Both the position numbers and the translations under genes were made by a program. Under the pieces are notes generated by a model. It was not told where the DNA came from. It made no database searches and saw only the letters and a program-made list of their open reading frames with translations. Shown one piece after another: positions 2,614 through 39,641 of a DNA stretch of 64,000 nucleotides. This DNA comes from Minisyncoccia bacterium. GTDB lineage: Bacteria > Patescibacteriota > Minisyncoccia > UBA6257 > 2-01-FULL-56-20. The stretch is from positions 172,609 to 236,608 of the forward strand of contig JBEKRC010000001.1 in NCBI GenBank assembly GCA_049997875.1. The letters are read 5' to 3'. Each line of letters starts with the position of its first letter. Positions within the stretch are counted from its first letter, which is position 1.

Positions 2614-3192
2614 ATGTTGTACAGCGTCGCGGGGAAGTTAACGCTGAAGTCGGATCATTTTGCGGTGGTTACCGCTGCGGGGTTGGGGATCAAGCTGTTT
2701 GCAAGCAAGCAAACGCTCAAGGCGCTCCCGGCGGTCGGGGCGGACGTGAAATTTTTCACCCACCTTTACGTGCGCGAGGACACACTGGACCTTTACGGGT
2801 TCTTGTCGGCCGAGGAGATGAACTTTTTTGAAATGCTGATCTCGGTTTCTGGCATCGGCCCGAAGTCGGCGCTCTCTATCTTGGACATCGCGCCATTGGG
2901 CGAGCTTTCGGCGGCGATAAAAGAAGGACGGCCGGATTTGCTCACGCGCGCGTCGGGCGTCGGCAGGAAGACCGCCGAGCGCGTGATTGTTGAGCTGCGG
3001 GGGAAGGTGGAATCGGCGAGATCGGGATTGGTCGTGGAAAAGATGGAGGGCGATGCGGACATCGTGGAGGCGCTTACGAGTCTTGGATATCGGCGCGAGG
3101 AGGCGCGCGCGGCGCTCGGGAAGGTTGATCCGAAAGTACGCGGCATGGAAGAGCGGCTCCGGGCGGCGCTCGGCGCGCTCGGGAAAAAATAA
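2614..3192 (+). CDS. ruvA: Holliday junction DNA helicase RuvA
   Basis: MLYSVAGKL... N-terminal OB domain, HhH (GIGPKSA), and a C-terminal domain ...YRREEARAAL. Confidence 0.9.
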   Translation: MLYSVAGKLTLKSDHFAVVTAAGLGIKLFASKQTLKALPAVGADVKFFTHLYVREDTLDLYGFLSAEEMNFFEMLISVSGIGPKSALSILDIAPLGELSAAIKEGRPDLLTRASGVGRKTAERVIVELRGKVESARSGLVVEKMEGDADIVEALTSLGYRREEARAALGKVDPKVRGMEERLRAALGALGKK

Positions 3193-3193
3193 A

Positions 3194-4513: not shown

Positions 4514-4524
4514 TTAATCCGAAT

Positions 4525-5877: not shown

Positions 5878-6494
5878 ATATGCCCCAGGAGCTTTCAAAA
5901 ACCTACCTCAAGTACAAAATCTGCGTTTCCGGTTCCGCCGTGACGGATGCCGCGGCGCAGGGGACGCTTCTGAAGGCCGAAGCGCTCGGCCGTATGATCG
6001 CGGAGCGCGGGATGGTGCTCGTGACGGGCGCCACGACCGGCATTCCGTACTGGGCCGCAAAAGGAGCGAAGGAAGCAGGGGGCATCGTGATCGGACTTTC
6101 ACCGGCCGTTTCAAAACTCGCGCACATAAAAACGTATCATTTGCCAATTGATTATCACGACCTCATTATCTACACCGGTTTTGATTATTCCGGACGCAAC
6201 CTGCTCCTCACGCGCACGGCCGACGCCGTGATTACGATCTGCGGTCGCGTGGGAACCTTGAACGAATTTACCATCGCGTTTGAGGATAAAAAACCGCAGG
6301 GGGTTTTGACGGGCACCGGCGGGGAAAGCGATGAGATTGAGCATATTCTGAAGATTGCGCATCGCGGCACGGGAAGAGTGGTCTTTGACCCCGATCCGAA
6401 GTCGCTTTTGGATAAAGTGGTTGCGATGGTTGAAGCGGAAGAAAAAGAGGTGGATCCCGAGGGATTTCAATCTTCTGCACAAAGGTCGCAGTAA
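5874..6494 (+). CDS. LOG-family / TIGR00725-like Rossmann-fold nucleotide-binding protein
   Basis: TGATTGIPYWAAKGAKEAGG and CGRVGTLNEF resemble the LOG/SLOG GGGxGxMG and PGGxGTxxE motifs. Confidence 0.55.
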   Translation: MNMPQELSKTYLKYKICVSGSAVTDAAAQGTLLKAEALGRMIAERGMVLVTGATTGIPYWAAKGAKEAGGIVIGLSPAVSKLAHIKTYHLPIDYHDLIIYTGFDYSGRNLLLTRTADAVITICGRVGTLNEFTIAFEDKKPQGVLTGTGGESDEIEHILKIAHRGTGRVVFDPDPKSLLDKVVAMVEAEEKEVDPEGFQSSAQRSQ

Positions 6495-6516
6495 AAAAAT
6501 AAAATCAAAATATCAA

Positions 6517-6789
6517 ATGGCTGCCAAGGGATCTTCAAAAGAGCCAAAACCGATCGGAGAGGTCGTGCATTTTTATAACAAGATCGGTGTCGCCATCGTG
6601 AAGTTCAACAAAGTGGTTCCCGCAGGGACAAAACTTGCATTCAAGGGTGCGACGACGGACTTTGAGGAAGTGGCGGGGTCCATGCAGTATGACCACAAAG
6701 CGATTGACAAGGCACCCAAAGGCGAGCAGGTGGGCATCAAGGTGAGCGAAAAAGTTCACGAGGGGGATTCGGTCTATCTCGCCGAATGA
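6517..6789 (+). CDS. small hypothetical protein (90 aa, beta-rich)
   Basis: The ORF is ATG-initiated and tightly packed between neighbours. No domain recognised with certainty. Confidence 0.4.
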   Translation: MAAKGSSKEPKPIGEVVHFYNKIGVAIVKFNKVVPAGTKLAFKGATTDFEEVAGSMQYDHKAIDKAPKGEQVGIKVSEKVHEGDSVYLAE

Positions 6790-7901
6790 AGTCGGCGCAG
6801 GGCGGGTTTTTCAAAGTCGCCGCGATCGTTGCGGCGGCGACGGTGGGAGACGGCGTGTTTGCATTGCCGTACGTGTTCATGCAATCGGGCTGGCTCGTCG
6901 GCCTTTTTTATTTGGTCGTGCTCGCGGTTTTTGTGAGCGCGGCGCACGTGGTCTATTTAAAAACACTTGAGAAGATCGGCGAGAGGGAGCGGCTCCTCGG
7001 GCTCGTAAAACAATACTTCGGCCGCGGCGGGTTCTGGGTCGGATTTGTGGCGATCGTGCTTGGTCTTCTCCTCACGCTCGTCGCCTATCTTATCCTCGGC
7101 ATGCAATTTATCCATCTTGCGTTCCCCTCGGTTGCGATGGGCGTCGCGCTCCTCGTCTTCTGGCTTTTTACCGCCATCACTGTTTTTGCAAGCGATCGGC
7201 GCGTGGTTAAACTGGAGCTTGTGGGCATTACCTGCACGTCCGCGATCATCATTTTTATTTTTGTGACTGCGTGGCCGTCCATTACCTTCGCGGGGGTTCC
7301 CGCTATTAATTTCCAAAATTTGTTTTTGCCGTTCGGCGCCATTCTCTTTGCGCTTGCGGGGTGGACGAGCGTGGAGCCGGCATATGAATCGCGCAAAAAG
7401 ACCGGCGCATTGTCCGATCCGTGGCGCGCGCTTGCCGGCGGGACCTTCTTCGTAGCGTTGCTGTATATGCTTTTTACGTCAGGGATCCTCGGATCCGCGC
7501 CCACAATCGCGTCCGATACCATCTCGGGCCTTACCCAGTGGCCCGTTTGGAAAAAGGAGATCCTTGTGCTCTTTGGATTGCTCGCCGTCGCGACCGTTTA
7601 CATGCCCGTCTCGCACGAGATAAAGAACGCGCTGGAGCATGACCTCGGATGGAGCAAGTTCGCATCCCGTTCTTTGATCCTCTTCCTCCCCGTCATCTTG
7701 ATCGGCCTTGGACTAAATAATTTTTTGGTGGTCGTAGGGCTCGTCGGAGGCCTCTTTATCAGCGTGCAATACCTCCTCATCATTTCGATCGGCCGCCGTG
7801 TCCTTGCCCTTTCCGCCGCGAAAAAGTTCTTTCTTGACCTCGTCGCCGCGATATTCGTGATCGCCGCCGTTTACGAAGCGTGGACGTTTGTAGTACACTA
7901 G
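6786..7901 (+). CDS. polytopic membrane protein, amino-acid-permease-like
   Basis: 371 aa, about 10-11 hydrophobic helices. Start overlaps the upstream stop. Confidence 0.55.
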   Translation: MKSAQGGFFKVAAIVAAATVGDGVFALPYVFMQSGWLVGLFYLVVLAVFVSAAHVVYLKTLEKIGERERLLGLVKQYFGRGGFWVGFVAIVLGLLLTLVAYLILGMQFIHLAFPSVAMGVALLVFWLFTAITVFASDRRVVKLELVGITCTSAIIIFIFVTAWPSITFAGVPAINFQNLFLPFGAILFALAGWTSVEPAYESRKKTGALSDPWRALAGGTFFVALLYMLFTSGILGSAPTIASDTISGLTQWPVWKKEILVLFGLLAVATVYMPVSHEIKNALEHDLGWSKFASRSLILFLPVILIGLGLNNFLVVVGLVGGLFISVQYLLIISIGRRVLALSAAKKFFLDLVAAIFVIAAVYEAWTFVVH

Positions 7902-26184: not shown

Positions 26185-26784
26185 TTGCTGCGTGATATAA
26201 TCAGCTCCATGCGGAAGATTGTTCTTGCGTCGTCCTCTCCGAGGAGGACGGAGATTCTGAATAGGATCGGTTTGAAGTTTGTCGTGGACCCTGGTGACTA
26301 TAAGGAAGACATGACCCTAAAACTCGCGCCAAGGGAACTTGCGAAGAGGTTGTCTTTGAAAAAGGCGGAATCGGTAGCGCGGCGGCATAAGGACGCCGTC
26401 GTCATCGGGGCGGACACCTGCGTCGTTTATAAAAACCGCGTTTTGGGAAAGCCCGGCATTCCAAAGAGGGCAAAAGCGATGCTGAAATTATTGAGCGGCA
26501 GGACGCATTCGGTGTTTACCGGTTTTACTATCATTGACACCAAAACAGGGAAAAGAGTGTCGCGCGTGAGCGAGAGCAAAGTCTACTTCAAAAAACTTGG
26601 CAATCGCGAGATGAATGCATACGTGAGGACGGGCGAGCCCTTGGATAAAGCGGGAGCGTACGCCGTGCAGGGGCGCGGGGCGGCGTTCATAAGGAAAGTG
26701 GAAGGTGATTTTTTCGGCATTATGGGATTACCGCTCTACGAGATTGTGCACGAGCTCGCGAAGTTCGGAGTGAAGATTTTTTAG
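26185..26784 (+). CDS. maf: Maf-like nucleoside triphosphate pyrophosphatase
   Basis: IVLASSSPRR...GADTCVV...GKP...LSGRTHSVFTG. Confidence 0.8.
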   Translation: MLRDIISSMRKIVLASSSPRRTEILNRIGLKFVVDPGDYKEDMTLKLAPRELAKRLSLKKAESVARRHKDAVVIGADTCVVYKNRVLGKPGIPKRAKAMLKLLSGRTHSVFTGFTIIDTKTGKRVSRVSESKVYFKKLGNREMNAYVRTGEPLDKAGAYAVQGRGAAFIRKVEGDFFGIMGLPLYEIVHELAKFGVKIF

Positions 26785-26811
26785 CGAGCGTTTTTTGGGG
26801 TGCCGGCGCTG

Positions 26812-27249
26812 CTATTCGGCACTGCGCATCTCGCGTTCGTGGGCGCGCTTTTTGAGCGCCTCGCGCTTGTCGGATTTTTTCTTTGCGCGGCCGAGGCCGA
26901 GCTCCAATTTTATGAAACCGCGTTTCAGAAAAGCGCAGAGAGGGACGAGTGTCTGCCCCTTTTCTTGGAGTGCGCCGGTCAATTCCTTTATTTCCTCTTT
27001 TGTCAACAAAAGCTTCCGCGAGCGGTCTTCTTCGTATCCCGAGGGGGTGTTCTTCGGCTGGTAGGGTGGGACGTGGGAATTCACGAGCCACGCCTCGCCG
27101 TTGCGGATCAAAACCCGCGCGCCCGCGATTTGCAAGCGGCCGCTTTTTGCGCTTTTTACCTCATGGCCGAGCAACGAAATGCCCGCTTCGTAGGTATCCG
27201 AAATTTCGTAGTCAAACCGCGCCCGGCGGTTTTCCGCAATGGTTTCCAT
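26812..27249 (-). CDS. smpB: SsrA-binding protein SmpB
   Basis: NRRARFDYEI.DTYEAGISLLGHEVKS...LVPL...KRG..KLELGL.RAKKK.DKR. Confidence 0.85.
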   Translation of the reverse strand: METIAENRRARFDYEISDTYEAGISLLGHEVKSAKSGRLQIAGARVLIRNGEAWLVNSHVPPYQPKNTPSGYEEDRSRKLLLTKEEIKELTGALQEKGQTLVPLCAFLKRGFIKLELGLGRAKKKSDKREALKKRAHEREMRSAE

Positions 27250-27429
27250 AGCTTTATTATAAACCGTATAGACCGTGCGTTGAATTCCATCCGTTTTTGG
27301 CTCACAATGAATGAAAAGTGGCGGAGAGCCAAAGACCGAAGGATTGGCCTTTGCCGCCTTCAGAGCTGAAGGTCGCTCATCCGCCACCATCATTATCCGC
27401 CGCCGCCGGCATGAGTCAAATATAGCGAT

Positions 27430-29172
27430 ATGAAAGAGAAAATCGTCAAAATTCTTGAAGATACAGCCGGCCGGAAGGCGTCGCTGATAGATGTTTTTGT
27501 TCCGGAACGCGAAAATTTTGGGCATTACTCAACAAATGTTGCGATGCGGCTCGGCGGTGCGGAGGAACGGAGCGAAGAGCCGCTTGCGCGCGCGGAGCGG
27601 CTTGCGGCGAAGGTGGCCAAGGCCGCGCCCGCCGGATTTTTTGAAAAAGTGGAGGCGGTGCCGCCGGGCTTCGTCAATTTTTGGCTGAGCAAGAAAACCA
27701 CACAAGAGGAATTTCAGAAGATCGTGCGCGACGCGCGGTTTGGAACGGGCGAAGCTATGAAAGGCAAAACGGTAATGGTGGAGTTTACCGACCCGAACCC
27801 CTTTAAGCTTTTCCACATTGGCCACCTCATGAGCAATACAGTTGGGGAATCTTTCGCGTGCCTCTATGAGGCGGCGGGGGCGAAGGTGATTCGCGCGAAC
27901 TATCAGGGAGACGTGGGGCTCCACGTGGCGAAGGCGGTATGGGGGATGGAGGAAATGTCCAAGCAGCACAGAGAGAAAAAGTTGCCGGGAGAAAATGCAC
28001 CGCTTGCCGAGAAAATTGCGTTCCTCGGCGATGCGTATGCGTTCGGCGCGCGAGCGTATGAAGATCAATCGGACGCCAAAAAACAGATAGAGACCGTGAA
28101 TGAAGCAATATACCGGCGCACGAATGCCGCCGTGAACCAGCTTTACGACGCCGGTCTGCGGTGGAGCCTGGCATATTTTGAAACCATTTATAAACGGCTT
28201 GGCACGAAATTTGACCGTTATTTTTTTGAGAATGAGATGGGAGAAAAAGGCCTTGCGCTGGTCCGTGCGCGAAGAGATATTTTTAAAGAGAGCGACGGCG
28301 CGATCGTGTTTCATGGCGAGGAATACGGTCTGCACACCCGTGTGTTCGTGAATTCCCGCGGGCTGCCCACGTACGAAGCGAAAGAACTCGGTCTCAACAC
28401 GAAAAAGTTTGAACTGTATCCATTGGACCTTTCCGTCATTGTGACAGGGAATGAGATTGTTGATTATTTCAGGGTGCTTTTGAAGGCGATGGAGCTTGTG
28501 GCGCCGGAGATTGCGGCGAAGACGCGCCATGTGCCGCACGGCATGCTGCGGCTCGCAACTGGCAAGATGTCGTCGCGGACCGGGGAGGTGGTTACCGCGG
28601 AATCCCTCCTTGAACAAGCAAAAGAGAAAATAAGAGAGCGCATGACCGCGGCGGAAGGCAAGAGCGCTGCGGAACGTGAAGAAATTGCGGAAGCCGTCGC
28701 AATCGGGGCGGTGAAATATTCCATCCTGAAGCAAAACCCCGGGCAGGATATTGCCTTTGATTTTGATAAATCGCTTTCTTTTGAGGGCGACTCCGGTCCT
28801 TATGTGCAGTACGCCTACGCGCGGCTCGCGAGCATTCTTCGTAAGGCGGGAATGGTACCGCCCGCATCCGACGCTGACGCTGACGCCGACGCCGCGCGTC
28901 TTGATTCGGAACTTGAGCTCGCGGTTATCCGCAAGATCATGGAATTCCCCGACGTGGTCTCGCACGCGGCCGAACGGCATCTCCCGAGCGGCGTCGCGGC
29001 GTATCTTTATAAGTTTGCTTCCCTCGTGAACAGGTTCTACGAAACCACGCCGGTCCTGAAAGAAAAAGACGCGGCGCGCCGCAACGCGCGTCTCGCGCTC
29101 GTGCGGGTCGCGTCGGAGGTTCTCATAAAGGGCCTTGCGCTTCTCGGGGTCCGTGCGCCGGAGAAGATATAG
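27430..29172 (+). CDS. argS: arginyl-tRNA synthetase
   Basis: HIGHLMSN class-I HIGH motif, DALR anticodon-binding C-terminus, 580 aa. Confidence 0.9.
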   Translation: MKEKIVKILEDTAGRKASLIDVFVPERENFGHYSTNVAMRLGGAEERSEEPLARAERLAAKVAKAAPAGFFEKVEAVPPGFVNFWLSKKTTQEEFQKIVRDARFGTGEAMKGKTVMVEFTDPNPFKLFHIGHLMSNTVGESFACLYEAAGAKVIRANYQGDVGLHVAKAVWGMEEMSKQHREKKLPGENAPLAEKIAFLGDAYAFGARAYEDQSDAKKQIETVNEAIYRRTNAAVNQLYDAGLRWSLAYFETIYKRLGTKFDRYFFENEMGEKGLALVRARRDIFKESDGAIVFHGEEYGLHTRVFVNSRGLPTYEAKELGLNTKKFELYPLDLSVIVTGNEIVDYFRVLLKAMELVAPEIAAKTRHVPHGMLRLATGKMSSRTGEVVTAESLLEQAKEKIRERMTAAEGKSAAEREEIAEAVAIGAVKYSILKQNPGQDIAFDFDKSLSFEGDSGPYVQYAYARLASILRKAGMVPPASDADADADAARLDSELELAVIRKIMEFPDVVSHAAERHLPSGVAAYLYKFASLVNRFYETTPVLKEKDAARRNARLALVRVASEVLIKGLALLGVRAPEKI

Positions 29173-29207
29173 AATATCTGCGGAAAATCTGGTATTTTAA
29201 GAGGACG

Positions 29208-32200
29208 ATGGCGCAGAAACGGAATTCCTCCGATGATAATTCCTCGTTGCCGAGACGCGAAGAGAAAACGCTTGAGTTTTGGGACGCCCATCGTGTTTTT
29301 GAAAAAAGTTTAGAAAAAACCAAGGAAGGGAAACCTTTCACATTCTACGACGGGCCGCCGTTCGCGACGGGACTCCCGCATTACGGGCACATTCTGGCGT
29401 CCACCATTAAAGACGTTGTGCCGCGATATCAGACGATGAATGGGCGGTTCGTCCGCCGCCGCTGGGGGTGGGATTGCCACGGGCTTCCCATTGAGGAGAT
29501 TGTGGAGCGCAAACTCGGCATTTCCGGAAAGAAGCAGATAGAGGCGATTGGCATCAAAAAATTCAACGAAACCTGCCGAAGCATGGTTTTGGAATATGCC
29601 GCGGAGTGGAAAAAGATGATCCGCCGCATTGCGCGCTGGGTGGAATTTGACGATTCCTACAAGACGATGGACGCGAGCTATATGGAATCGGTCTGGTGGG
29701 CGTTCAAGGAAATATATAAGAAGAAGCTCGTCTACGAAGGGCGGAAGGTGCTTTTGTATTGTCCGCGCTGCGAGACGCCGATCTCAAACTTTGAGGTGGC
29801 GATGGACAACAGCTACAAAGACGTGACCGAGGAATCAGTGACGGTGAAGTTCCATTTGAAACCAGGGCAGAAATTCGGGAAGGGCGGTAATTATGAAACA
29901 AAAGACAACGCTTATATTCTTTCGTGGACGACAACGCCCTGGACGCTCCCCGGGAACGTCGCGCTTGCAGTAGGAGAAGATGTTTCCTACACCGCACTGC
30001 GCGTCAAAAATGTGCCCGGCCTCTATATTCTTGCAAGTGACCGCGCGAACACCGTTTTCAAAGATCAACCGGTGGAGGTTGTTCACGATGATATTAAGGG
30101 AAAGGATTTGGTCGGGTTGGAATACGAGCCGCTTTTCGATGTTCCTGCGGCGCGGAACGACAAGGCCTTCAAGGTTTACCCTGCCGACTTTGTGACGACC
30201 GAAGAGGGAACGGGCGTTGTGCACACGGCGGTCGTTTACGGAGAAGAGGACTATGAGCTTGGCATGCGCGTGGGGCTGCCCGTCGTGCCGCTGCTTGACG
30301 AAAAAGGAATTTTCAACGAAAAGGCGCCGGAGCTTGTGCGCGGGACGTACTTCAAAGACTCTGAAAAAATCATTAAAGGCGACTTGCAAAATCGCGGACT
30401 GTTGTTCAAACGGGAAGCGCATACGCACTCGTATCCGTACTGCTGGCGCTGCGGCAACATGCTCTTCTATAACGCAATTCCCGCATGGTTCATCAATGTT
30501 CAGAAGATAAAACCGCAACTCTTGGATTCGAATAACCGCGAGATCAACTGGTTCCCGGAGCACCTGAAGCACGGACGCTATGAAAAAAGCGTGGAGGCGG
30601 CGCCCGATTGGAACATCTCGCGCAATCGCTACTGGGGCAATCCGATTCCCGTGTGGAAGTGCGATGGCTGCGATCGCGAGGAGGCCGTGGGCAGCATTGA
30701 GGAATTGTCAAAGCTCGCCGGTCATTCAAAAAATAATTACTGGGTGATGCGGCACGGAGAGGCGGAAAGCAATATGTTCCACATCGTTGATTCGGGTCAG
30801 CGGAAGTATTTGCACCTCACGCCGCGCGGCCAGAAACAGGTTGGAGATTCAATCAGGAATTTCAAATCCGAGCTTGCAAAACGCGGGCAAAAAATAGACT
30901 TGGTAATCTCCTCGGACATCACGCGCACCGAGGAAACCGAATCTATCGTCGCCTCCGTTTTGGCGGGAGAAAAGGTGCGGTTTGACGCGCGGCTTGAGGA
31001 AATTCACCTTGGTCCCACGCTCACCGGTTATCGCGATGCAGAATATTCGACCGCTTTCCCCACCTACCGGGCGCGGTTTGAGAAACGGCCGGAAGGAGGA
31101 GAATCCCTGCGTGATCTCCGTGCCCGCGTGTGGGAATTTTTGGCGGAATGCGAAAGGAAATATGAGGGGAAAAATATTCTTCTTGTCACTCACGAGTATC
31201 CCACGTGGATGTTGTTTCATGTGGCGCTTGGATGGAGCGAGCGCGACGCAATCGTTGAGAAAGAGAAGCAAAAAGCGGATTTCATTGATTTTGCGGAGGT
31301 GCGTAAGTTGGAAGTGGGAATTATTCCGCGGAATGACGGGGGAGAAGCAGACCTTCATCGGCCGTATATTGATGGCATAACGTTCAAGTGTTCCGAGTGC
31401 GGGGACGCGATGAAGCGGACGCCGGAAATTTTTGATTCTTGGATGGAAGCGGGCTCAATGCCGTTCGCCGAGTATCATTATCCGTTTGAAAATAAAGAGG
31501 TCTTTGAGGGCCGTTTCCCGTGCCAGTTCGTTGCGGAATATACCGCACAGACGCGGGCGTGGTTCTATGTGATGCATGTGATCGCCATGGTTCTCTTTGG
31601 GAAGGCACCCTTTGAAAACGTGGTCACCACCGGGAACATTCTTGCGGAAGACGGTTCAAAAATGAGCAAATCAAAAGGGAACTTTCCGGACCCCAACCTT
31701 GTGATCGGAAAATACGGGGCGGACAGCTTGCGATTCTATCTCATGAATTCCGTCGTGATGCAGGCCGATGACATCAATTTTTCCGAGAAGGCTGTGGAGA
31801 ACATTTATCGGAAGGTTGTTGTTATCCTGTGGAATGTATGCAAATTTTTCACGACCTATATTGATCCGGCGGTGCTCGCGTCGGAGAAGCCGCCGTCCTC
31901 CGGCGGAGCGAATGTTCTTGATCAATGGATCGGAATACGAACGGCGGAACTTGTGGAGGGCGCGACCGAGTATCTTTCGGCCTATGACACCGTGCGCGCG
32001 ACGCGAGTGATCCAGGAATATATTGATGACCTCTCCACCTGGTATCTCCGCCGCAGCCGGAAGCGCGAAGACGCCGCTTTTTACGCCACGCTTTACAAAA
32101 GCCTCCTTACTGCAAGCAAAGTTATCGCGCCGTTCATGCCGTTTCTTGCCGAAGAACTCTATGGGACATTGAGATCGTATAGCGGCGGCAGGGAAGTTGC

Positions 32201-32765
32201 CGAGTCGGTGCATCTCGCCCGTTGGCCGGTTGCGGAAATTTCAGAGGGCGTTGCGGAAAGGAAAAGATTGATTGAGGCCATGAAAGAGGTGCGGCGGCTG
32301 GCGAGCGTGGGGCTTGCGAAGCGCGCAGGGGCCGGCATCAAGATCCGCCAGCCGCTCGGGAAATTGAAGATCAAGACCGCAGCAATGCCGCTCTCGGCTG
32401 AACTGCTTCGCGTATTGGCCGAGGAGGTGAATGTGGAGGAAGTCGTTTTTGACAAATCCCTTGAAGGCGAAATTGAGCTTGACCTTGCGATCACGCCGGC
32501 ATTGCGCGAGAAAGGGTTGCTCCGCGAGGTGGCGAGGATGGTTCAGGAGCTGCGGCAAAAAGCGGGACTTGCGCCAAAGGATAAGATTACGCTGATGCTT
32601 GATCTCCCCCCAGTTGCCAAAGCCGCCGTTCTGAAACAGGAAGCAGTGCTGCGTTCCGCCGTCGGCGCAAAATTGGTTGAATACGGGAGAGCGGAAAGGT
32701 TTAGCGCGGAAGCGCTCGCAAAGTTGGAAGGGCAAGAAGCGTGGATCGGGCTCCGCAAGGCGTAG
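29208..32765 (+). CDS. ileS: isoleucyl-tRNA synthetase carrying an inserted histidine-phosphatase (PGAM-like) domain
   Basis: PHYGHILAS HIGH motif, CP1 editing region, WNISRNRYWGNPIPVW, KMSKS, and the DLHRPYID...C..CG zinc knuckle. An insertion of about 208 aa at roughly nt 30725-31350 carries YWVMRHGEAESN and LLVTHEY (RHG histidine-phosphatase signature). Confidence 0.9.
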   Translation: MAQKRNSSDDNSSLPRREEKTLEFWDAHRVFEKSLEKTKEGKPFTFYDGPPFATGLPHYGHILASTIKDVVPRYQTMNGRFVRRRWGWDCHGLPIEEIVERKLGISGKKQIEAIGIKKFNETCRSMVLEYAAEWKKMIRRIARWVEFDDSYKTMDASYMESVWWAFKEIYKKKLVYEGRKVLLYCPRCETPISNFEVAMDNSYKDVTEESVTVKFHLKPGQKFGKGGNYETKDNAYILSWTTTPWTLPGNVALAVGEDVSYTALRVKNVPGLYILASDRANTVFKDQPVEVVHDDIKGKDLVGLEYEPLFDVPAARNDKAFKVYPADFVTTEEGTGVVHTAVVYGEEDYELGMRVGLPVVPLLDEKGIFNEKAPELVRGTYFKDSEKIIKGDLQNRGLLFKREAHTHSYPYCWRCGNMLFYNAIPAWFINVQKIKPQLLDSNNREINWFPEHLKHGRYEKSVEAAPDWNISRNRYWGNPIPVWKCDGCDREEAVGSIEELSKLAGHSKNNYWVMRHGEAESNMFHIVDSGQRKYLHLTPRGQKQVGDSIRNFKSELAKRGQKIDLVISSDITRTEETESIVASVLAGEKVRFDARLEEIHLGPTLTGYRDAEYSTAFPTYRARFEKRPEGGESLRDLRARVWEFLAECERKYEGKNILLVTHEYPTWMLFHVALGWSERDAIVEKEKQKADFIDFAEVRKLEVGIIPRNDGGEADLHRPYIDGITFKCSECGDAMKRTPEIFDSWMEAGSMPFAEYHYPFENKEVFEGRFPCQFVAEYTAQTRAWFYVMHVIAMVLFGKAPFENVVTTGNILAEDGSKMSKSKGNFPDPNLVIGKYGADSLRFYLMNSVVMQADDINFSEKAVENIYRKVVVILWNVCKFFTTYIDPAVLASEKPPSSGGANVLDQWIGIRTAELVEGATEYLSAYDTVRATRVIQEYIDDLSTWYLRRSRKREDAAFYATLYKSLLTASKVIAPFMPFLAEELYGTLRSYSGGREVAESVHLARWPVAEISEGVAERKRLIEAMKEVRRLASVGLAKRAGAGIKIRQPLGKLKIKTAAMPLSAELLRVLAEEVNVEEVVFDKSLEGEIELDLAITPALREKGLLREVARMVQELRQKAGLAPKDKITLMLDLPPVAKAAVLKQEAVLRSAVGAKLVEYGRAERFSAEALAKLEGQEAWIGLRKA

Positions 32766-32784
32766 AAGGACAGACGGCGGGACG

Positions 32785-33063
32785 CTAAAAGCCGAGCGCT
32801 TTTTCCGTGCGAACGACGCGGACGTTCAGGTTATCAATCACTTTGTGAACGCCGCGCATTTCTTCGTTGGACGCCTTTATGTTGTCTTCTGTGCGGGAAA
32901 CAGTGATTGCGATGCTATCTACGCGTTCTTCAAGGGCGGTAAACCGCCGGTCTACCATAGTAAAACCATCTCTGACCGCACCTGTAAGGTCTTCAATGGA
33001 AACGGCAAGGGTTTTGAGCGTGATTTCTTCTTCCATTCTTTCCAGTGTAGCCGCCAAAGCCAC
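32785..33063 (-). CDS. small hypothetical coiled-coil protein (92 aa)
   Basis: ORF only, between ileS and trpS. Confidence 0.35.
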   Translation of the reverse strand: MALAATLERMEEEITLKTLAVSIEDLTGAVRDGFTMVDRRFTALEERVDSIAITVSRTEDNIKASNEEMRGVHKVIDNLNVRVVRTEKALGF

Positions 33064-33125
33064 CCTGTCAAAGGTTCTTTAATAATTTTTTAATCTGCGT
33101 GCAAGGGGTTTTGGGCTCACGCACT

Positions 33126-34145
33126 TCAGAGTGCGATGCCGATTTTCCTTTTCACTTCTTTTATTTTCTTTTCCGCGACGCGTGCCGCACGCGCCGATCC
33201 TTCCTCCAAAATTTTCACGAGCGTTGCAGGTTCCGAAAGCAGTTCTTTTTTCCGGGCGCGGAATTTTGCAAGGTGGTTCGCCGCAAGCTCCACAAGCCGT
33301 TTTTTGAATGTCGCATAATTTTCGCCCGCGAATTCCTTCGCGACCATCTGTGGTTCCATGTGTGAGAGCGCCGTGTAGATGTCCAGAAGGTTCGCAAGGC
33401 CCGGTTTTTTGTGCGGCTCGTAGGTCACCGCGGAGCCGGAATCCGTGACCGCATGCGCGATCTTTTTCGCGATCTCTGCCGGCGCGTCGTCCAGAAACAA
33501 GCATCCCGCCGGCTCCGATTTTGACATTTTTTTCTCCGGATTTGTGAGGCTCATCACACGCGCGCTCTTCGTGAGCAGTGCCTTCGGTTCCGTGAATGTT
33601 TTTCCGAACCGCGCATTGAACCTCCGCGCGAGCGTGCGCGTGAGTTCCAAATGTTGCAGCTGGTCATCACCCACCGGAACGACCGCGGCATCGTACATGA
33701 GGATATCCGCCGCCATGAGGACCGGATAATCAAAAAGTCCGACATTGACGTTCTCCTTTTGTCGCGCCGACTTGTCTTTATACTGCGTCATTCTTTCCAG
33801 GTCTCCCATCGGAGCTACCGTGTTAAGGATCCACCCAAGTTCCGCGTGCGTCGGCACTTGTGACTGTTGGAAAATGCAGGATTTTTTCGGGTCAATGCCG
33901 GCCGCCAGGTATTCCGCGAGGGTTTCCAGGATTTGCTTCTTTTTCTCTTTCGGCTCAAATGGTTCAGTGATGGAATGAAGATCCGCGATGAAAAAGTAGT
34001 ACTCGTATTGCGCGGAGTCCTGGAGATCAACGAAGTTCCTGAGCGCGCCCAGATAATTGCCGATATGGAGGCGTCCCGATGGCTGGATGCCGGAGACAAG
34101 AACCGGTTTCATATCTTGATGATAGCACAAAAAACAAAGACTCAT
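33126..34145 (-). CDS. trpS: tryptophanyl-tRNA synthetase
   Basis: SGIQPSGRLHIGNYLGA and KMSKS. Confidence 0.9.
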   Translation of the reverse strand: MSLCFLCYHQDMKPVLVSGIQPSGRLHIGNYLGALRNFVDLQDSAQYEYYFFIADLHSITEPFEPKEKKKQILETLAEYLAAGIDPKKSCIFQQSQVPTHAELGWILNTVAPMGDLERMTQYKDKSARQKENVNVGLFDYPVLMAADILMYDAAVVPVGDDQLQHLELTRTLARRFNARFGKTFTEPKALLTKSARVMSLTNPEKKMSKSEPAGCLFLDDAPAEIAKKIAHAVTDSGSAVTYEPHKKPGLANLLDIYTALSHMEPQMVAKEFAGENYATFKKRLVELAANHLAKFRARKKELLSEPATLVKILEEGSARAARVAEKKIKEVKRKIGIAL

Positions 34146-34293
34146 CCTAGGTCACCCTCCCATTTTCTGTTTGATATCTTCCAATTTCAGGGCCCTGCTC
34201 TTTTCATTAAGGCGCCGCATAGCGTCTTCCTGCATGTCAAGCAAAAGATTCAGGTCTTCTTCCAATAACCTCTCCTTTTCTTTGTTTTTTAAT

Positions 34294-35910
34294 TTATCGT
34301 TTGGCATATTTTTCGGTGAAATAATTCACGAACCTTTCTCCATAAACGTCTCTAAAGTGATCCTTTCTTTCTTGTATGTCCGAAACCATGAACTCCAAAG
34401 TTCCTTCGTCCATGCCTCGATCTAATAATTGAGGATTTTCCCTTACTGCAGATCTTGTTTCGTTTATTTGTTGAGGGGTGGCGAATTGTGGATAAAACTC
34501 TGTGAGAGCGTAAGCCCCATAACCGCCTTGCTCAAATATCTTAGACGCCATTGGTGCGACCGCCTCTGGCCTTTTGTCCAATAATTCCAGCAGTGCCTTG
34601 GTGGATGCCGGATCTGCCAACGCTGCGGCGAGCAACTGCTCAGCGCGCTTTTTCAGCTCCGGGCGGCCACTCCAGAATTTTTGCAAAGCCTTATCGTTCA
34701 CGTCATATAACGCGAGTCCCAGCTCTCTATAGAAACTTGTTGACATTTTTTTCGCATCTCCGGGCTCGCCAGCAGGACCATTTTCGCGTTCCGAAGAAAA
34801 TTCTTCTACTTTATCGGTTCCTTGAGTCAGATAAGTTAAATGTTCCGCCACTAGATTTTCATATTTTTGGGCCAACGCGGGCGGCAGGTCCGCTCTGTGC
34901 CGCTCAAGTGTTTTCCATTGGCTGAACGGATGGAATAAGGCAACGTTACCCCGCGTGCGCTCCGGATGGTAACCAGGGATCCCATGCATGAATGTCCTTT
35001 CAAAGCCGTTCAGCCAACTATTGTAATGCTGGGCGTATCCTCCGGATTTTACACCCATCCGCTCTGCGAGTTTGTGGTCAACGGCGATCGGGGATTCTGA
35101 TCCTCCATACCAACCATAATCCTCCTTTTTTAAAACTTCCGTTATCGTATCGTCGCCCAAGGATTTGTTCTCAACGAATTGGATGCCGAGATTCTGACTG
35201 GTGCAAAATTCTTGTAACTGGGCCAAAGAAGCATTTTCTTTCATATCAGCTCGGTAGACGATTTTTGTTCCTTCGGGCAATTCCAGTCCGTCTGCCACAA
35301 GCCAATACGTATCATCTTTTCCTAAAGCGTACGGTTTACCATTCTTTTCAACCGTTTTATCCATCGGCATAACATACGCGAAGGCAACATCGTTCCACGA
35401 ACCACCGTCATTATTCGCGACCCTGCAATTTAAGGTGAAGTGCAGTGTGGGCCGGGGGACCTTGCCCCCCGTTTCGTCAAATGCCGTTCGGAGCTGTAAT
35501 TTGCCATCCGCAATGACGGGTAGATTATTGGAGACCCTGACCGCCGCTAAATATTCCAAAGGGTTTTCTTTCCCTATTATTGATTCTCCTTCCTTTAGTT
35601 TCCTGCTGAATGGAGGAGGGATATTTTCAACTCCTTGCTCTTCTTGTGATGCGGCTTCTCTCGCCATTTCGTGAGCGGTGTCGGAGATCGCAGCAATTTC
35701 ATTAAGCTCAGGAAGGTCTTTTGTGTTTATCGCCTCCGCATTATCTAACACCAATTCTTGGGATTTTTTCAGCCCCTTTGTAAATTTTAAAAGCTTTCGC
35801 CTTATCCGCTCTACGAAATTTTCTTTAGGAGAATTACTTTCAGGCGTCCCTTCCTTAAGAACTTCGTTCTCTTGTTGGGGTTCCTTCTTCGTTTCAGCTT
35901 CTCCATTCAT
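34294..35910 (-). CDS. large hypothetical protein (538 aa), acidic low-complexity N-terminus, lower GC than neighbours
   Basis: Long uninterrupted ORF. No recognised domain and no signal peptide. Confidence 0.55.
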   Translation of the reverse strand: MNGEAETKKEPQQENEVLKEGTPESNSPKENFVERIRRKLLKFTKGLKKSQELVLDNAEAINTKDLPELNEIAAISDTAHEMAREAASQEEQGVENIPPPFSRKLKEGESIIGKENPLEYLAAVRVSNNLPVIADGKLQLRTAFDETGGKVPRPTLHFTLNCRVANNDGGSWNDVAFAYVMPMDKTVEKNGKPYALGKDDTYWLVADGLELPEGTKIVYRADMKENASLAQLQEFCTSQNLGIQFVENKSLGDDTITEVLKKEDYGWYGGSESPIAVDHKLAERMGVKSGGYAQHYNSWLNGFERTFMHGIPGYHPERTRGNVALFHPFSQWKTLERHRADLPPALAQKYENLVAEHLTYLTQGTDKVEEFSSERENGPAGEPGDAKKMSTSFYRELGLALYDVNDKALQKFWSGRPELKKRAEQLLAAALADPASTKALLELLDKRPEAVAPMASKIFEQGGYGAYALTEFYPQFATPQQINETRSAVRENPQLLDRGMDEGTLEFMVSDIQERKDHFRDVYGERFVNYFTEKYAKR

Positions 35911-35928
35911 GTCTTATTCTGAACAGGA

Positions 35929-37785
35929 TTACACCTCAATGATCACGGGCAGGATCATCGGCCGGCGCCGCGTTTTGTTATAGAGGAATTGTCCAACTTG
36001 GTCGCGGATGAGCGTCTTTAGATAATCAGGCTCCACTTCGCGGTAACTGGGAAGGCGTGTAATGAGCGCGCGGATGCGTTTGCGAATTTCTTCCAGAAGC
36101 TCCTGATGTTCCTTAAGGTAGATAAAGCCGCGCGAGATGATGTCGGGGTTTTTGAGAAGCCGCCCCTTGGTTTGGTCAATGGTGAGAATAATGACGACCA
36201 TGCCCTCCTGGGAAAGCGCGCGCCGGTCGCGGAGCACTACTTCCTCCACGTCGCCGACGCCCAAGCCATCCACCATCACGTACGACGCGGGCACGGTCTG
36301 CTTGGTTATCGTAAACGTGTCTTTTGTGATCTCCGCCACTTGCCCATTGTCCATCATTTTGACCGTTTCGCGGGGGAGGCCCACCTCAACTGCAATTTTT
36401 TTGAGCGCCGAACGGAAGAAATAATACCCATGGATCGGGACGACAAATTTCGGTTTCATGAGCCGGAGCACGAACTTTAGGTCTTCCTGGTGCGCGTGGC
36501 CCGAGGCGTGGATGTCCAGGATCTTTACGTTGTAAAGTTCGTCCACCTGCCGCGCAATGTTATCTTGTAGTGCCTGCACGCTCCGCTCGTTTCCCGGTAC
36601 GACCGACGAGGAGAAGATGACGGTATCAGTGGATTTGAGGCGCACTACCCTGTGGTCGCCGTTCACGATGCGCATGAGTCCGGCATTCTTTTCTCCCTGG
36701 GATCCGGTCGTAAGGATGACCACTTTGTTATCGGGATATTTATTGATCTCCTCAATTGGGACGATTTCATCCTTTTTGGTCTTGAGATAGCCAAGCTGCT
36801 CAGCGATTTGGAAATTGTCCTTCATGGATCTGCCATTGAGGGCTACCTTCCGGTCAAGTTTTTCGGCGAGCTTCACGACTTCAAAAAGGCGCGTGAGGAG
36901 CGAGGAGAACGTGGCAATGAGGAGCCGCCCCTTCGCATGACTCATGAGCTCGTAGAGATTGTCGCTTACGGTTTCTTCCGAAAACGAGAATCCCGGCTTG
37001 TAGGCATTCGTGCTGTCAATGAAGACGGTGTGGATGCCTCGTTTGCCGATTTCGCCGAATATCTCCGTTTCCACCGGTTTGCCCTGCTTGTCCATCCTCA
37101 ACCGGAAATCGCCGAAGCTCACCATATTGCCAATGGGCGTTTTCAATACGAAGCCGAGCGCGTCGGGGATCGTGTGGTCAACGTTGAAGAAGTCGGCTTC
37201 AAAATATCTGCCAAGTTTTTCGTGGTCGCCGTGTTTCACCACCTTGAAGCGCAGCTTCGGCGCGTTCGTGAATTCCTGATGCCGTTTTTCTATCATTGCC
37301 TTCGTGAAGTCCGCCGTGTAGATGACGGGGTTGCCCAGCTTTTCTATGAGGTAATGGATCGCGGCCATGTGGTCATAGTGGCCGTGGGTAATGAGGATCG
37401 CCTGGATGCGGTCCTTTTTAGATTCAAGATACGCGATGTTCGGAATAATGTAATCAATACCCGGCGTTTCCTCTTCGGGGAATTGGATGCCGACGTCCAC
37501 AAGAACGATTTCGTCTTTGTACTCAAAAAAGTAGCAGTTCCTGCCAATTTCCTCCAGGCCGCCAAGCGGCACGAAACGGAGCGTGTCTTCCTTCAGTACC
37601 GCAGGCGCTGCGGCGGTTTGCTCTGTTTTCGGCCGCATCATTTCACGGCGCGGCGCCGCACTGCGACCCTGTTTAGTGCGGGTCATTGTGTGCGCCGGTC
37701 GTTGCGGCGCGGCGGGAAACGGACGTGGCCGCACTTCGGGCGGCCTTATTCTCGGTCGTTCTTTCTCTTCAATTTTTCTCATCAT
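35929..37785 (-). CDS. rnj: ribonuclease J (beta-CASP MBL) with Arg/Pro-rich N-terminal extension
   Basis: ILITHGHYDHMAAIHYL, beta-CASP and C-terminal RNase J domains. Confidence 0.85.
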   Translation of the reverse strand: MMRKIEEKERPRIRPPEVRPRPFPAAPQRPAHTMTRTKQGRSAAPRREMMRPKTEQTAAAPAVLKEDTLRFVPLGGLEEIGRNCYFFEYKDEIVLVDVGIQFPEEETPGIDYIIPNIAYLESKKDRIQAILITHGHYDHMAAIHYLIEKLGNPVIYTADFTKAMIEKRHQEFTNAPKLRFKVVKHGDHEKLGRYFEADFFNVDHTIPDALGFVLKTPIGNMVSFGDFRLRMDKQGKPVETEIFGEIGKRGIHTVFIDSTNAYKPGFSFSEETVSDNLYELMSHAKGRLLIATFSSLLTRLFEVVKLAEKLDRKVALNGRSMKDNFQIAEQLGYLKTKKDEIVPIEEINKYPDNKVVILTTGSQGEKNAGLMRIVNGDHRVVRLKSTDTVIFSSSVVPGNERSVQALQDNIARQVDELYNVKILDIHASGHAHQEDLKFVLRLMKPKFVVPIHGYYFFRSALKKIAVEVGLPRETVKMMDNGQVAEITKDTFTITKQTVPASYVMVDGLGVGDVEEVVLRDRRALSQEGMVVIILTIDQTKGRLLKNPDIISRGFIYLKEHQELLEEIRKRIRALITRLPSYREVEPDYLKTLIRDQVGQFLYNKTRRRPMILPVIIEV

Positions 37786-37816
37786 GCTTTCTCTTTCTCA
37801 ATCGTCATTCATCTTC

Positions 37817-37903
37817 TGGTGGGCAGGGAGGGATTTGAACCCTCACGACCTTGCGGCCATAGGCTCCTGGGGCCTACATGTCTGCCAGTTCCATCACCTG
37901 CCC
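37817..37903 (-). tRNA. tRNA-Leu (anticodon CAG), class II with long variable arm, CCA encoded
   Basis: The reverse complement gives GGGCAGG...TAGGC-ccCAGga-GCCTA-TGGCCGCAAGGTCGTGA-GGGTTCAAATCCCTCC-CTGCCC-A-CCA. Confidence 0.8.
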
Positions 37904-37997
37904 TTAGGAAACGGTGTTGCCGAAGGAGGAATTCGCCATGTAGATTACAGTATAGCGCCGCTCTTGTAAAAAAGTCAATGTGTCGCGTGAGCCCGCG

Positions 37998-39641
37998 TTA
38001 TTTGAGCACTCGCGCCGTGTTCAAATACCACGCGCCGATGTTTCGGAATCGGTCGGACGGATCGGAGAGGAATCCGGTTGTTATGCCCTGCACGCTTTTG
38101 TCAGTTACGTATAAGTAGTCCGGCGAGTAAAGGAATACGGCGGGATTGTCGGCGACGATGGCGTTTTCCGCGCTTGCGAATTCCTGCGTCCGCGAGGCGT
38201 CGTTCATGTCTGTGCGCGCCGCCGCGACGAGCGAATCAACCTTTGTGTTTTGGTAGATTGCAAGATTGAGGCCGGGGAAGAACCTTTGCGAGGAGGCCCA
38301 AAAAGCGCTGAGGTCGGAATCCGGACCAAGGATGTTCCCGAAAAGCAACGATTCGTAGTCGCGGTTTTTGATCGCGTTGTCCGCGAGGGACTGCGGGTCC
38401 GCAGGCGAGACGTTCACCGTGACCCCTATGCTTTCCCACGCGTTTGTGAGCGCTTGCGCAGTCCGCGTGAGGAAGTCTATCTGCGGGACGGTCAAATTCA
38501 CGACGAGCGGCACGGAGGTTTTTTGGATGGTCTTTGCACGGAAACCGTCCGTGCCCACGTTCCATCCCGCGGCATCAAGTGTGGTTGACGCGAAATAAAG
38601 TGAGGTCGTCGCGGGGATGGATATAAAATACGGAGCGCCTTCGGGAACGGGGCCGTACTCGGGCGCTCCTTTGCCGCCCAATGCGAGGGTGACGAGGGCA
38701 TCGCGATCCACCGCGGCCGAAAGCGCTTCGCGGACGGCGGGATCTTGGAGAGGAAGGCTTCTGCTTTGATTGAAGAACACCGCGTAGTAGCTTGAGGTGC
38801 GCCACGCGAAAAGATCATGAGGGCGTTCAATCGCAGCAAGGTGATCCGGCGGGATGTTGTCCATGCCGTTGATTTGCCCTGCGTTAAAACTTTTTACGAG
38901 GGCGTCAAGGTTGCTAAAAAAACTGAAATCAAAGCGTTGGATGAGAGGTTTTGTGCCGAAGTAGCTGTTCCATGCCTGGAGGTGGTAGGCCGAGATGGTG
39001 CCGTCCGATTGCTTTTCGTACGAAACGAATTCGTACGGGCCGCTCCCGACGGGCCTCAAGTTGTAGTCGGAGAGGCGCCAATTACCGGGCGGCGTATTCG
39101 CGAAAATGTGCTTCGGCACTACATAGAGGTTTTTCAAATCGTCACCAAAGAAAGCATACGGGTTGATAAGGTTAAATTGGAGCATGAGTTCGCTCGCGCG
39201 GCTTACGGTGACGCCCTGCCAGTTTGCCGCGAGCGGGGAATTGGCATCTGCGCTTTCTATTGATTGGACGGTGAAAATGACATCGTCGGAGGTGAGCTTC
39301 TCACCGTCCTGCCAGTGTAAATTTTCTTTCAGCCGCACCGTCCAGGTTTTTCCGTCCGGCGAAACCGCGATGTTGTCGGCAATGTCATAGACGTTGCTGT
39401 AGATCATTTTTACCAAGCTCAAATCGGTTTCGCTTGCCGCCATTACCGGGTTTACGTATTCGGGCTGTCCCACCATTCCTTCGGTATAATCTCCGCCGGC
39501 GGCGGGGACCACGGTGGTTGCCTGGACCACAAGCAAACTCATGACCGCCGCGAGACTCGCGACGGTAAGCGAAGCGGCGGTTAAAAAAGCAATGCGCTCA
39601 TTCCTCGTAAAGACAAAAAAAATTTTCTTGAGAGGTAGCAT
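37998..39641 (-). CDS. ABC transporter substrate-binding protein, family 5 (peptide/nickel type)
   Basis: 547 aa with N-terminal signal anchor. Typical SBP_bac_5 length and motifs. Confidence 0.75.
   Translation of the reverse strand: MLPLKKIFFVFTRNERIAFLTAASLTVASLAAVMSLLVVQATTVVPAAGGDYTEGMVGQPEYVNPVMAASETDLSLVKMIYSNVYDIADNIAVSPDGKTWTVRLKENLHWQDGEKLTSDDVIFTVQSIESADANSPLAANWQGVTVSRASELMLQFNLINPYAFFGDDLKNLYVVPKHIFANTPPGNWRLSDYNLRPVGSGPYEFVSYEKQSDGTISAYHLQAWNSYFGTKPLIQRFDFSFFSNLDALVKSFNAGQINGMDNIPPDHLAAIERPHDLFAWRTSSYYAVFFNQSRSLPLQDPAVREALSAAVDRDALVTLALGGKGAPEYGPVPEGAPYFISIPATTSLYFASTTLDAAGWNVGTDGFRAKTIQKTSVPLVVNLTVPQIDFLTRTAQALTNAWESIGVTVNVSPADPQSLADNAIKNRDYESLLFGNILGPDSDLSAFWASSQRFFPGLNLAIYQNTKVDSLVAAARTDMNDASRTQEFASAENAIVADNPAVFLYSPDYLYVTDKSVQGITTGFLSDPSDRFRNIGAWYLNTARVLK

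Follow-up and report, generated by a model that had tools for sequence, protein, structure and literature searches.

Few enzymes are as conserved as the aminoacyl-tRNA synthetases, and bacterial ones with a second complete catalytic domain within the Rossmann core are, to our knowledge, very rare. Class Ia synthetases do carry modules inserted in Rossmann surface loops, including the CP3 zinc finger, the leucine-specific domain of LeuRS and the ZN domains, all of them small, non-enzymatic and aiding tRNA binding or catalysis. Here we examine a stretch of 64,000 nucleotides (the window) from a Minisyncoccia bacterium (contig JBEKRC010000001.1, positions 172,609 to 236,608), in which the gene for isoleucyl-tRNA synthetase (IleRS), ileS, encodes a protein with a histidine-phosphatase domain inside its catalytic core. 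In contrast to the class Ia modules, this one would have an active site of its own and amount to a complete second enzyme. We consider it probable that the protein is bifunctional: a type-2 IleRS whose CP3 zinc-knuckle loop holds an autonomous, active small phosphatase tied to class-I synthetase function. Coordinates given below are window positions on the forward (+) strand unless marked (-).

The two halves of this arrangement each have well-described counterparts. Type-2 IleRSs (1ILE, 8C8V, 8WND; the mupirocin-resistant type) share with the query a Rossmann fold, CP core, CP1 editing domain, CP2, CP3, SC-fold, anticodon-binding domain and C-terminal DUF5915, and the Thermus thermophilus enzyme (TtIleRS) likewise has HIGH, KMSKS and two Zn knuckles. 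Within CP3, however, 1ILE, 8C8V and 8WND have ~10-14 residues where the query has its 212-residue phosphatase. PhoE/YhfR (1H2E, 1EBB), CobC (6E4B), GpgP Rv2419c (4PZ9), PspA (4IJ5) and TIGAR have the fold of the inserted domain, its RHG...R...E...H constellation and its short cap, which is usual for phosphatases and not for mutases, but these are free-standing metabolic enzymes, whereas the domain studied here resides inside a tRNA synthetase or is genomically linked to one. A CobC-like histidine phosphatase is also fused to a nucleic-acid enzyme in the Rv2228c-type RNase H/acid phosphatase (NF005567); there the fusion with RNase H is end to end, in contrast to the internal insertion in the query. 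Precedent for an IleRS with a second enzymatic domain comes from ileS_w_GNAT (NF040702), whose extra domain is GNAT and not His_Phos_1; the query scores 284.8 bits against that family's cut-off of 1999 and contains no Pfam GNAT domain.

A phosphatase domain within the CP3 zinc knuckle of IleRS

The ileS gene (29208..32765) encodes 1185 amino acids (aa), the length given in the prediction that first drew attention to this locus, and its product is a type-2 (eukaryote-like) IleRS related to 1ILE, 8C8V and 8WND. It scores 821.2 bits against the curated ileS equivalog TIGR00392 (cut-off 621.4), the match falling in two stretches that flank the insert, and the Pfam tRNA-synt_1 match of the open reading frame (ORF) at 29208-32765 is split in two around His_Phos_1. 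T. thermophilus IleRS (1ILE) is the best solved relative (E 7e-214). Foldseek searches with a full-length AlphaFold2 (AF2) model (predicted local distance difference test, pLDDT, 87.5; predicted template-modelling score, pTM, 0.80) placed 8C8V (Priestia megaterium IleRS2), 8WND (yeast IleRS) and 1ILE on top, with E ~1e-80 and target-normalised template-modelling (TM) scores of 0.80-0.88. At the synthetic site, the HIGH signature reads HYGH (aa 58-61; 29379..29390); H58, G60 and H61 do not vary among 96 homologues, nor do K818-S822 of the KMSKS signature (aa 818-822; 31659..31673). The CP1 editing domain is present, with the editing-domain structures 1WK8 and 1UE0 matching query aa 202-411, and Pfam detects Anticodon_1 and DUF5915. 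The query is an IleRS with intact signatures, and on the strength of this conservation it is expected to isoleucylate and edit.

Alignment to insert-free enzymes defines the inserted module as aa 503-714 (30714..31349). In the pairwise alignment to 1ILE, query residues 13-502 correspond to 9-478 and 715-1044 to 489-821, with ~212 residues replacing ~10, and the same gap appears against ~60 insert-free type-2 IleRSs of other phyla, in which a 10-14-residue linker occupies this place. The original prediction had placed an in-frame RHG-family domain of ~200 aa in the catalytic core at 30725-31350; these boundaries agree with the alignment, and the split Pfam match and the conserved catalytic residues described below bear out the domain itself. 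Its landmarks, RHG at aa 515-517, H662 in LLVTHEY and the flanks WNISRNRYWGNPIP (aa 468-481) and DLHRPYID (aa 715-722), also lie where they had been reported.

The insert separates two CxxC pairs that, by alignment, are halves of the CP3 zinc motif. The first (C485-C488; 30660..30671; C485 invariant) lies upstream, and IleRS resumes downstream with DLHRPYID and the second pair, C728-C731 (31350..31400), ~100 residues ahead of KMSKS; H717, R718, P719, D722, C728 and C731 are invariant in the 96 homologues. CP3 comprises residues 473-534 of the C. albicans enzyme and 459-526 of the yeast enzyme (PMC7191050, PMC7955072); it bears a Zn motif in TtIleRS and varies in topology among IleRSs (PMC7191050). 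A catalogue of synthetase insertion modules lists it as a Cys-rich zinc finger of 25-77 aa and assigns it no role (PMC10810186). Just ahead of the knuckle, WNISRNRYWGNPIP (30609..30650) is the CP2-CP3 linker motif, with R472 and R474 invariant in the 96 homologues. Its equivalent in yeast IleRS (ScIleRS 453-465, with Arg460/Arg462) lines the tRNA CCA-end pocket, and the two yeast linker arginines match the residues with which LeuRS binds the phosphates of C74 and A76 (PMC7955072). By homology, the phosphatase would be planted on a variable surface element that adjoins the acceptor-end/ATP cavity, just after the SRNRYWG motif.

Sequences of metagenomic origin can contain mis-joined reads, and an assembly chimera fusing a phosphatase gene into ileS had been raised as a possibility when the domain was first noticed. 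We regard this possibility as negligible. A chimera is excluded because exactly this 1185-aa protein occurs on 8 independent contigs, up to 309 kb long, in four repositories. Hundreds of divergent homologues have the insert in frame at exactly this position, neither insert junction shows a shift in GC content, and the full-length model is confident through both linkers (pLDDT blocks for aa 501-510 and aa 701-720 all ~90 or higher).

Catalytic residues, fold and family

Canonical branch-1 histidine phosphatases share a constellation of Arg-His(nucleophile)...Arg...Glu(acid)...His. The Pfam His_Phos_1 (PF00300) core of the insert spans aa 512-678 (30741..31241; E 2e-24, 86.8 bits against a gathering threshold of 21.7) and contains the whole set. 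Conservation was scored over 115 full-length close homologues and over a diverse set of 87 domains, 47 embedded and 40 stand-alone. The RHG motif (aa 515-517; 30750..30758) supplies R515 and the presumed nucleophile H516, kept in 115/115 homologues and 87/87 diverse domains, and the SxxxRTxxT motif supplies the second phosphate-binding arginine, R573 (30924..30926), which is invariant. E598 of the RLxE motif (30999..31001), which we take to be the proton donor by analogy with the dPGM/PhoE family, is Glu in 110/115 and Asp in 5/115, and the second catalytic histidine, H662 (31191..31193), is kept in 115/115 homologues and 86/87 diverse domains. Across the 115 homologues R515, H516, G541, S569, R573, E632, R640 and H662 are invariant, G517 is kept in 96% and N522 in 80%. 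The catalytic set holds in the 47 embedded domains, in the 40 free ones and in both copies of IleRSs with two domains. From this pattern we infer that the domain is an active phosphomonoesterase, which would work via a phospho-His516 intermediate.

Many domains appended to aminoacyl-tRNA synthetases are non-catalytic, and the module could in principle be a catalytically dead structural, regulatory or tRNA-binding appendage that keeps the ancestral fold. Such a dead scaffold is very unlikely because the His nucleophile, both Arg, the Glu and the second His are invariant among sequences that are otherwise 30-40% identical, duplicated copies included. The insert averages 53% identity to the query across homologues, against 67% for the remaining IleRS, and the two values co-vary (r = 0.66), which fits long vertical co-evolution under purifying selection.

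Modelled in isolation, the domain folds confidently (pLDDT 95.3, pTM 0.92). Its nearest Foldseek neighbours are GpgP Rv2419c, PspA, CobC, PhoE/YhfR and TIGAR, at TM ~0.73 and 19-25% identity; matches to GpgP, PspA, CobC, PhoE and dPGM reach probability 1.00 with TM 0.6-0.75 and E 1e-12 to 1e-11 (small phosphatases). A PDB sequence search with the insert gave weak matches only (E ~1e-4).

Subfamily assignment was attempted with NCBIfam. The top similarity is to NF005567 (RNase H/acid phosphatase), at 64.8 bits against a cut-off of 326. Membership of dPGM was rejected (dPGM_arch 57.8 bits against 225; GpmB 41.8 against 261; PRK01295 30.9 against 316), as were CobC alpha-ribazole phosphatase (TIGR03162 51.5 against 162.9; PRK15004 41.2 against 250) and SixA (TIGR00249 24.3 against 74.5, with an alignment that covers the N-terminal third only). 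The stand-alone relatives likewise fall short of curated phosphatase subfamily cut-offs. The cap is short, at ~34 aa; the position aligned with Lys100 is D610 and variable, and H662 is followed by E/G-Y/D, not G-N. The dPGM-specific substrate residues are the equivalents of Lys100, Arg116/117 and Asn186. Because the cap is short and these substrate residues are unconserved, the domain appears to be a phosphatase of undefined specificity and no mutase; nor is it a bona fide phosphoglycerate mutase (PGM) by NCBIfam, as no cut-off is reached. Of the initial 'PGAM/RHG-family' label, His_Phos_1 with its catalytic set stands, while the domain is of the short PhoE/CobC/GpgP/PspA type and not a true phosphoglycerate mutase.

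Distribution and evolution of the embedded domain

The insert is no peculiarity of this genome, since PF00300 is carried at the same site by 120/120 best homologues (100% down to 54% identity). A HMMER search with the insert alone against 1.84 billion representatives at 50% identity gave 289 matches at E<=1e-10. Among the best 150 of these 289, 96 are IleRS-embedded (64 with both IleRS halves, 32 in fragments) and 54 are free proteins of ~190 aa. RH[GA] is kept at the same site in 31/31 full-length representatives, the most divergent of which are 35% identical overall.

A scan of GTDB species representatives, which is a sample and not a census, revealed how the architecture is spread over lineages. 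Insert-bearing IleRSs among the matches listed come from Saccharibacteria, Minisyncoccia, Spechtbacterales, Yanofskybacteria, Paceibacteria and Peregrinibacteria. At least ~60 insert-free type-2 IleRSs among the matches listed come from Clostridia, Bacilli, Ignavibacteria, Cloacimonadota, Treponema, Chloroflexota, Actinomycetota and others, and no phosphatase copy lies within 3 kb of ileS at any non-CPR locus examined (CPR, candidate phyla radiation, here Patescibacteria). Judged from these sequences, the architecture is ancestral and nearly general in Patescibacteria and absent from the sampled type-2 IleRSs of other phyla. One insert-bearing IleRS (L012, CAYOXM010000018.1) sits in a metagenome-assembled genome labelled 'uncultured Gammaproteobacteria'. 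It is probably a mis-binned CPR contig; if real, it is the sole non-CPR occurrence.

Some CPR IleRSs, those of L017, L031 and L038, lack the insert. In a neighbour-joining tree of IleRS cores they nest within insert-bearing CPR clades, away from other phyla, and this nesting suggests secondary fission or loss of the insert; the domain and IleRS trees are star-like, carry no support values and are used qualitatively only. An apparent 'split ileS' in L016 proved to be a scaffold gap.

Other lineages have gained copies. IleRSs of Peribacteria/Peregrinibacteria, ~1470-1490 aa long, carry two tandem His_Phos_1 domains in CP3, both catalytically complete (L018 724-5139; L019 1489-5961; L039 1498-5958; also L021). 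In P0258 (1419 aa) one domain lies in CP3 (aa 491-685) and another between the SC-fold and the anticodon-binding domain (aa 868-1062); this second insertion site corresponds to a low-confidence loop near query aa 885-902.

Two further groups of proteins are recorded as side observations. The IleRS-like P0263 (1066 aa) combines His_Phos_1 with an IS200-like Y1 transposase (aa 340-461) and GNAT (aa 935-1063), and could be a chimeric call or a genuine multi-insert enzyme. Eight divergent representatives of 723-766 aa (P0140, P0153, P0158, P0159, P0217, P0228, P0229 and P0232) share one start ~70 aa before the insert (~query aa 434) and span the phosphatase and the C-terminal half of IleRS; they may be naturally split ileS genes, or an alternative-code or frameshift artefact.

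Free-standing genes and other fusions

In the window, argS (27430..29172), which encodes a 580-aa ArgRS (Pfam Arg_tRNA_synt_N, tRNA-synt_1d, DALR_1), lies directly upstream of the insert-bearing ileS, and in other CPR the same argS-ileS synteny hosts a free phosphatase gene. The Staskawiczbacteria locus L017 has argS at 1337-2992, a gene for a 202-aa histidine phosphatase at 2956-3564 and an insert-free 947-aa ileS at 3569-6412. The ends of the free protein match the boundaries of the inserted domain (MKLKNKYYIMRHG...AEIRELN against ...KNNYWVMRHG......AEVRKLE). At E<=1e-8 there are 298 relatives of this protein; JGI annotation frequently calls them 'PhoE' and in two cases 'isoleucyl-tRNA synthetase'. 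We examined neighbourhoods for family members only ~30-60% identical to the L017 protein. The order argS-phosphatase-ileS (insert-free) recurs in L084 and L085, is interrupted by a toxin-antitoxin cassette in L082 and L083, and extends to the start of ileS in L087-L089, whose ileS ORFs end at the contig edge before the insertion site. L086 has argS-phosphatase with the downstream gene cut, L091 has the phosphatase and the start of ileS, likewise cut at the contig end, and L090 has argS-phosphatase with a convergent insert-free ileS. The module is thereby shown to be separable, in the form of an apparently orthologous ~190-aa protein beside insert-less ileS, mostly as its own gene between argS and ileS.

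Several of these loci have features of their own. In L082/L083, the interval 5678-7686 between the phosphatase gene and ileS holds an RHH/YafQ-like toxin-antitoxin pair and two unannotated ORFs. The insert-free ileS of L090 (2685-5609, (-)) is divided into two successive ORFs, with the break at about query aa 412, and is either a split gene or carries a sequencing frameshift. L082-L085 and L092 share a conserved CPR block, rplT-(rpmI)-infC / smpB / AA_kinase-family gene / argS / phosphatase / ileS / unknown / recO; L092 has lost both the AA_kinase gene and ileS from this block, and there argS and the phosphatase form a single fused gene.

Fusions outside IleRS were also found. His_Phos_1 is C-terminal in ArgRS proteins (P0201, L092), in 3/120 ArgRS relatives, two of them 49% identical to each other, and it is fused to TsaC/YrdC in P0169 and L094. 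All three fusion partners, IleRS, ArgRS and TsaC, are tRNA/adenylate enzymes. Mean isoelectric points differ between the forms, at 9.75 (strongly basic) for the free-standing proteins against 6.7 (near neutral) for the embedded domain.

Functional interpretation

Because the phosphatase survives fission, duplicates and re-fuses, we infer that its function is selected in its own right. We take that function to be coupled to class-I synthetase and tRNA biology and not to glycolysis. This coupling is favoured by the CP3 site next to the CCA-end pocket and by extra copies gained repeatedly within IleRS. Further points in its favour are the basic charge of the free forms, the translation genes around the fissioned gene and the independent fusion to TsaC.

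Our leading but weak guess at a substrate is a phosphorylated tRNA 3' end. The synthetase would serve as a tRNA-binding platform that holds the tRNA, while the phosphatase would strip a 2'/3'-phosphate that blocks the 3' end or, where that end is pyrophosphorylated, its terminal phosphate; A76 would become chargeable once the 3' end had been cleared. Hints in this direction are the CCA-end linker at the start of CP3, the contrast in charge between free and embedded forms, and the shared tRNA/adenylate character of the three fusion partners. In its full form, tRNA 3'-end 'healing' of nuclease or toxin damage on synthetase-held tRNA, coupled to aminoacylation, is a doubtful proposal. Bacterial class-II CCA-adding enzymes possess an HD-domain phosphatase/phosphodiesterase able to remove 2',3'-cyclic or terminal phosphates. 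Should a tRNA end prove to be the substrate of the inserted module, this HD domain would be its nearest functional analogue, by analogy only, the HD fold being unrelated and its chemistry metal-dependent. The idea that CPR use archaeal CCA-adding enzymes without the HD phosphatase was dropped, as a 2026 preprint reports canonical class-II enzymes in CPR.

Several observations weigh against a phosphatase tied to synthetase function. The insert stays below every NCBIfam subfamily cut-off, leaving its specificity undefined, and we know of no histidine phosphatase of this branch that acts on RNA ends. The second insertion site in P0258 speaks against a strict requirement for one geometry with respect to the synthetic site. 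No phosphatase copy lies within 3 kb of the insert-free ileS in L031 and L038. ArgRS fusions are rare (the 3/120 above) and could be neighbour read-through. The adjacency of the free gene to argS/ileS may be an inherited relic of an older insert-bearing ileS, and for that reason we do not count these lineages as independent evidence of coupling.

Such points feed the main rival explanation, a metabolic hitch-hiker: an ordinary small-molecule phosphatase or mutase, such as a phosphoglycerate mutase, a phosphoserine phosphatase or a sugar-phosphate phosphatase, lodged in a permissive IleRS loop, kept for guaranteed expression and mechanistically unconnected to aminoacylation. We give it a real, if minority, chance. 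CP3 would be a tolerant insertion site because it is a variable module of 25-77 aa without an assigned role (PMC10810186), its topology differing among IleRSs. The nearest structures are all metabolic phosphatases, archaeal dPGM is among the best NCBIfam similarities, the module occurs as a free protein, and a second copy elsewhere in IleRS suggests that position is unimportant. PGM is also reported missing from some shallow Parcubacteria clades (PMC7304191). Most CPR, however, have PGM, insert-bearing lineages included, dPGM_arch stays at 57.8 bits against its cut-off of 225, and the domain has a short cap and no conservation of the substrate residues specific to dPGM. The fissioned gene moreover stays among translation genes (rplT-rpmI-infC, smpB, argS, ileS), the free form turns strongly basic, and its independent fusion partner TsaC is again a tRNA-pathway enzyme. 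A narrower variant, in which the domain is the 'missing CPR phosphoglycerate mutase', is weakened by the general presence of PGM in CPR and by the failed dPGM tests.

Coupling to the synthetase could also take the form of product clearing, in which the phosphatase hydrolyses pyrophosphate (PPi), AMP or another nucleotide by the synthetic site and so pulls amino-acid activation forward. IleRS, ArgRS and TsaC all split ATP to adenylate and PPi, CP3 adjoins the active-site cavity, and the CobC and PhoE relatives act on nucleotide-like 5'-phosphates. We nevertheless find this unlikely: no pyrophosphatase is known to us among the branch-1 histidine phosphatases, destruction of AMP would be wasteful for organisms dependent on nucleotide salvage, and the domain occurs in one or two of ~20 synthetases only. 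Clearing of PPi, or replacement of a pyrophosphatase, is further weakened because complete genomes of Peribacteria, the two-copy lineage, are reported to encode inorganic pyrophosphatase (PMC4736985).

A built-in protein phosphatase would reverse inhibitory phosphorylation of the synthetase or of translation proteins, for example by HipA-like toxin kinases or by phage kinases directed at the ATP site of synthetases. HipA-family toxins phosphorylate GltX and TrpS, the superfamily includes the protein phosphatases SixA, PGAM5 and Sts-1, and the insert has weak similarity to SixA (24 bits) and lies within the catalytic domain. The toxin-antitoxin pair between phosphatase and ileS in L082/L083 shows that the locus attracts such elements. 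Against these points, the SixA cut-off is far off, the window holds no sign of a cognate kinase, PADLOC returned zero defence-family matches, which also speaks against a link to defence systems, and we know of no kinase that targets IleRS or ArgRS. We rate a protein phosphatase as improbable. The reading that we prefer remains an active phosphatase tied to synthetase function, with the tRNA end as a tentative substrate.

Novelty and implications

Full-text literature searches turned up no description of an IleRS, or any aminoacyl-tRNA synthetase, with a histidine-phosphatase domain, in line with the initial impression that the protein belongs to no described family. Database labels read 'class I tRNA ligase family protein' or 'isoleucyl-tRNA synthetase' only. 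Two known families are here joined in an undescribed, lineage-wide and evidently selected arrangement. Because this architecture is the rule in a large radiation with shrinking genomes, strong selection for a translation-tied phosphatase activity seems likely.

Automated annotation hides a whole enzyme in 'isoleucyl-tRNA synthetase', which may affect reconstructions that count phosphatases or mutases. The insert is a clean sequence marker for CPR IleRS, and the fissioned (argS-phosphatase-ileS), duplicated and ArgRS/TsaC-fused forms provide a ready comparative framework. The protein should be easily expressed and assayed. If its substrate is tRNA- or adenylate-related, it would bring a new kind of accessory chemistry to aminoacylation; tRNA 3'-end healing, if true, would represent a form of quality control or repair not known before and a lineage-defining trait of Patescibacteria.

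Neighbouring genes in the window

Window ORFs 26800-27369, 32785-33063 and 34294-35910 have no Pfam match. The region 26185-39641 contains three class-I synthetase genes, argS (27430-29172, (+)), ileS (29208-32765, (+)) and trpS (33126-34145, (-)). This cluster is flanked by Maf (26185-26784) on one side and by RNase J (35929-37785, (-)) and a family-5 solute-binding protein (37998-39641, (-)) on the other.

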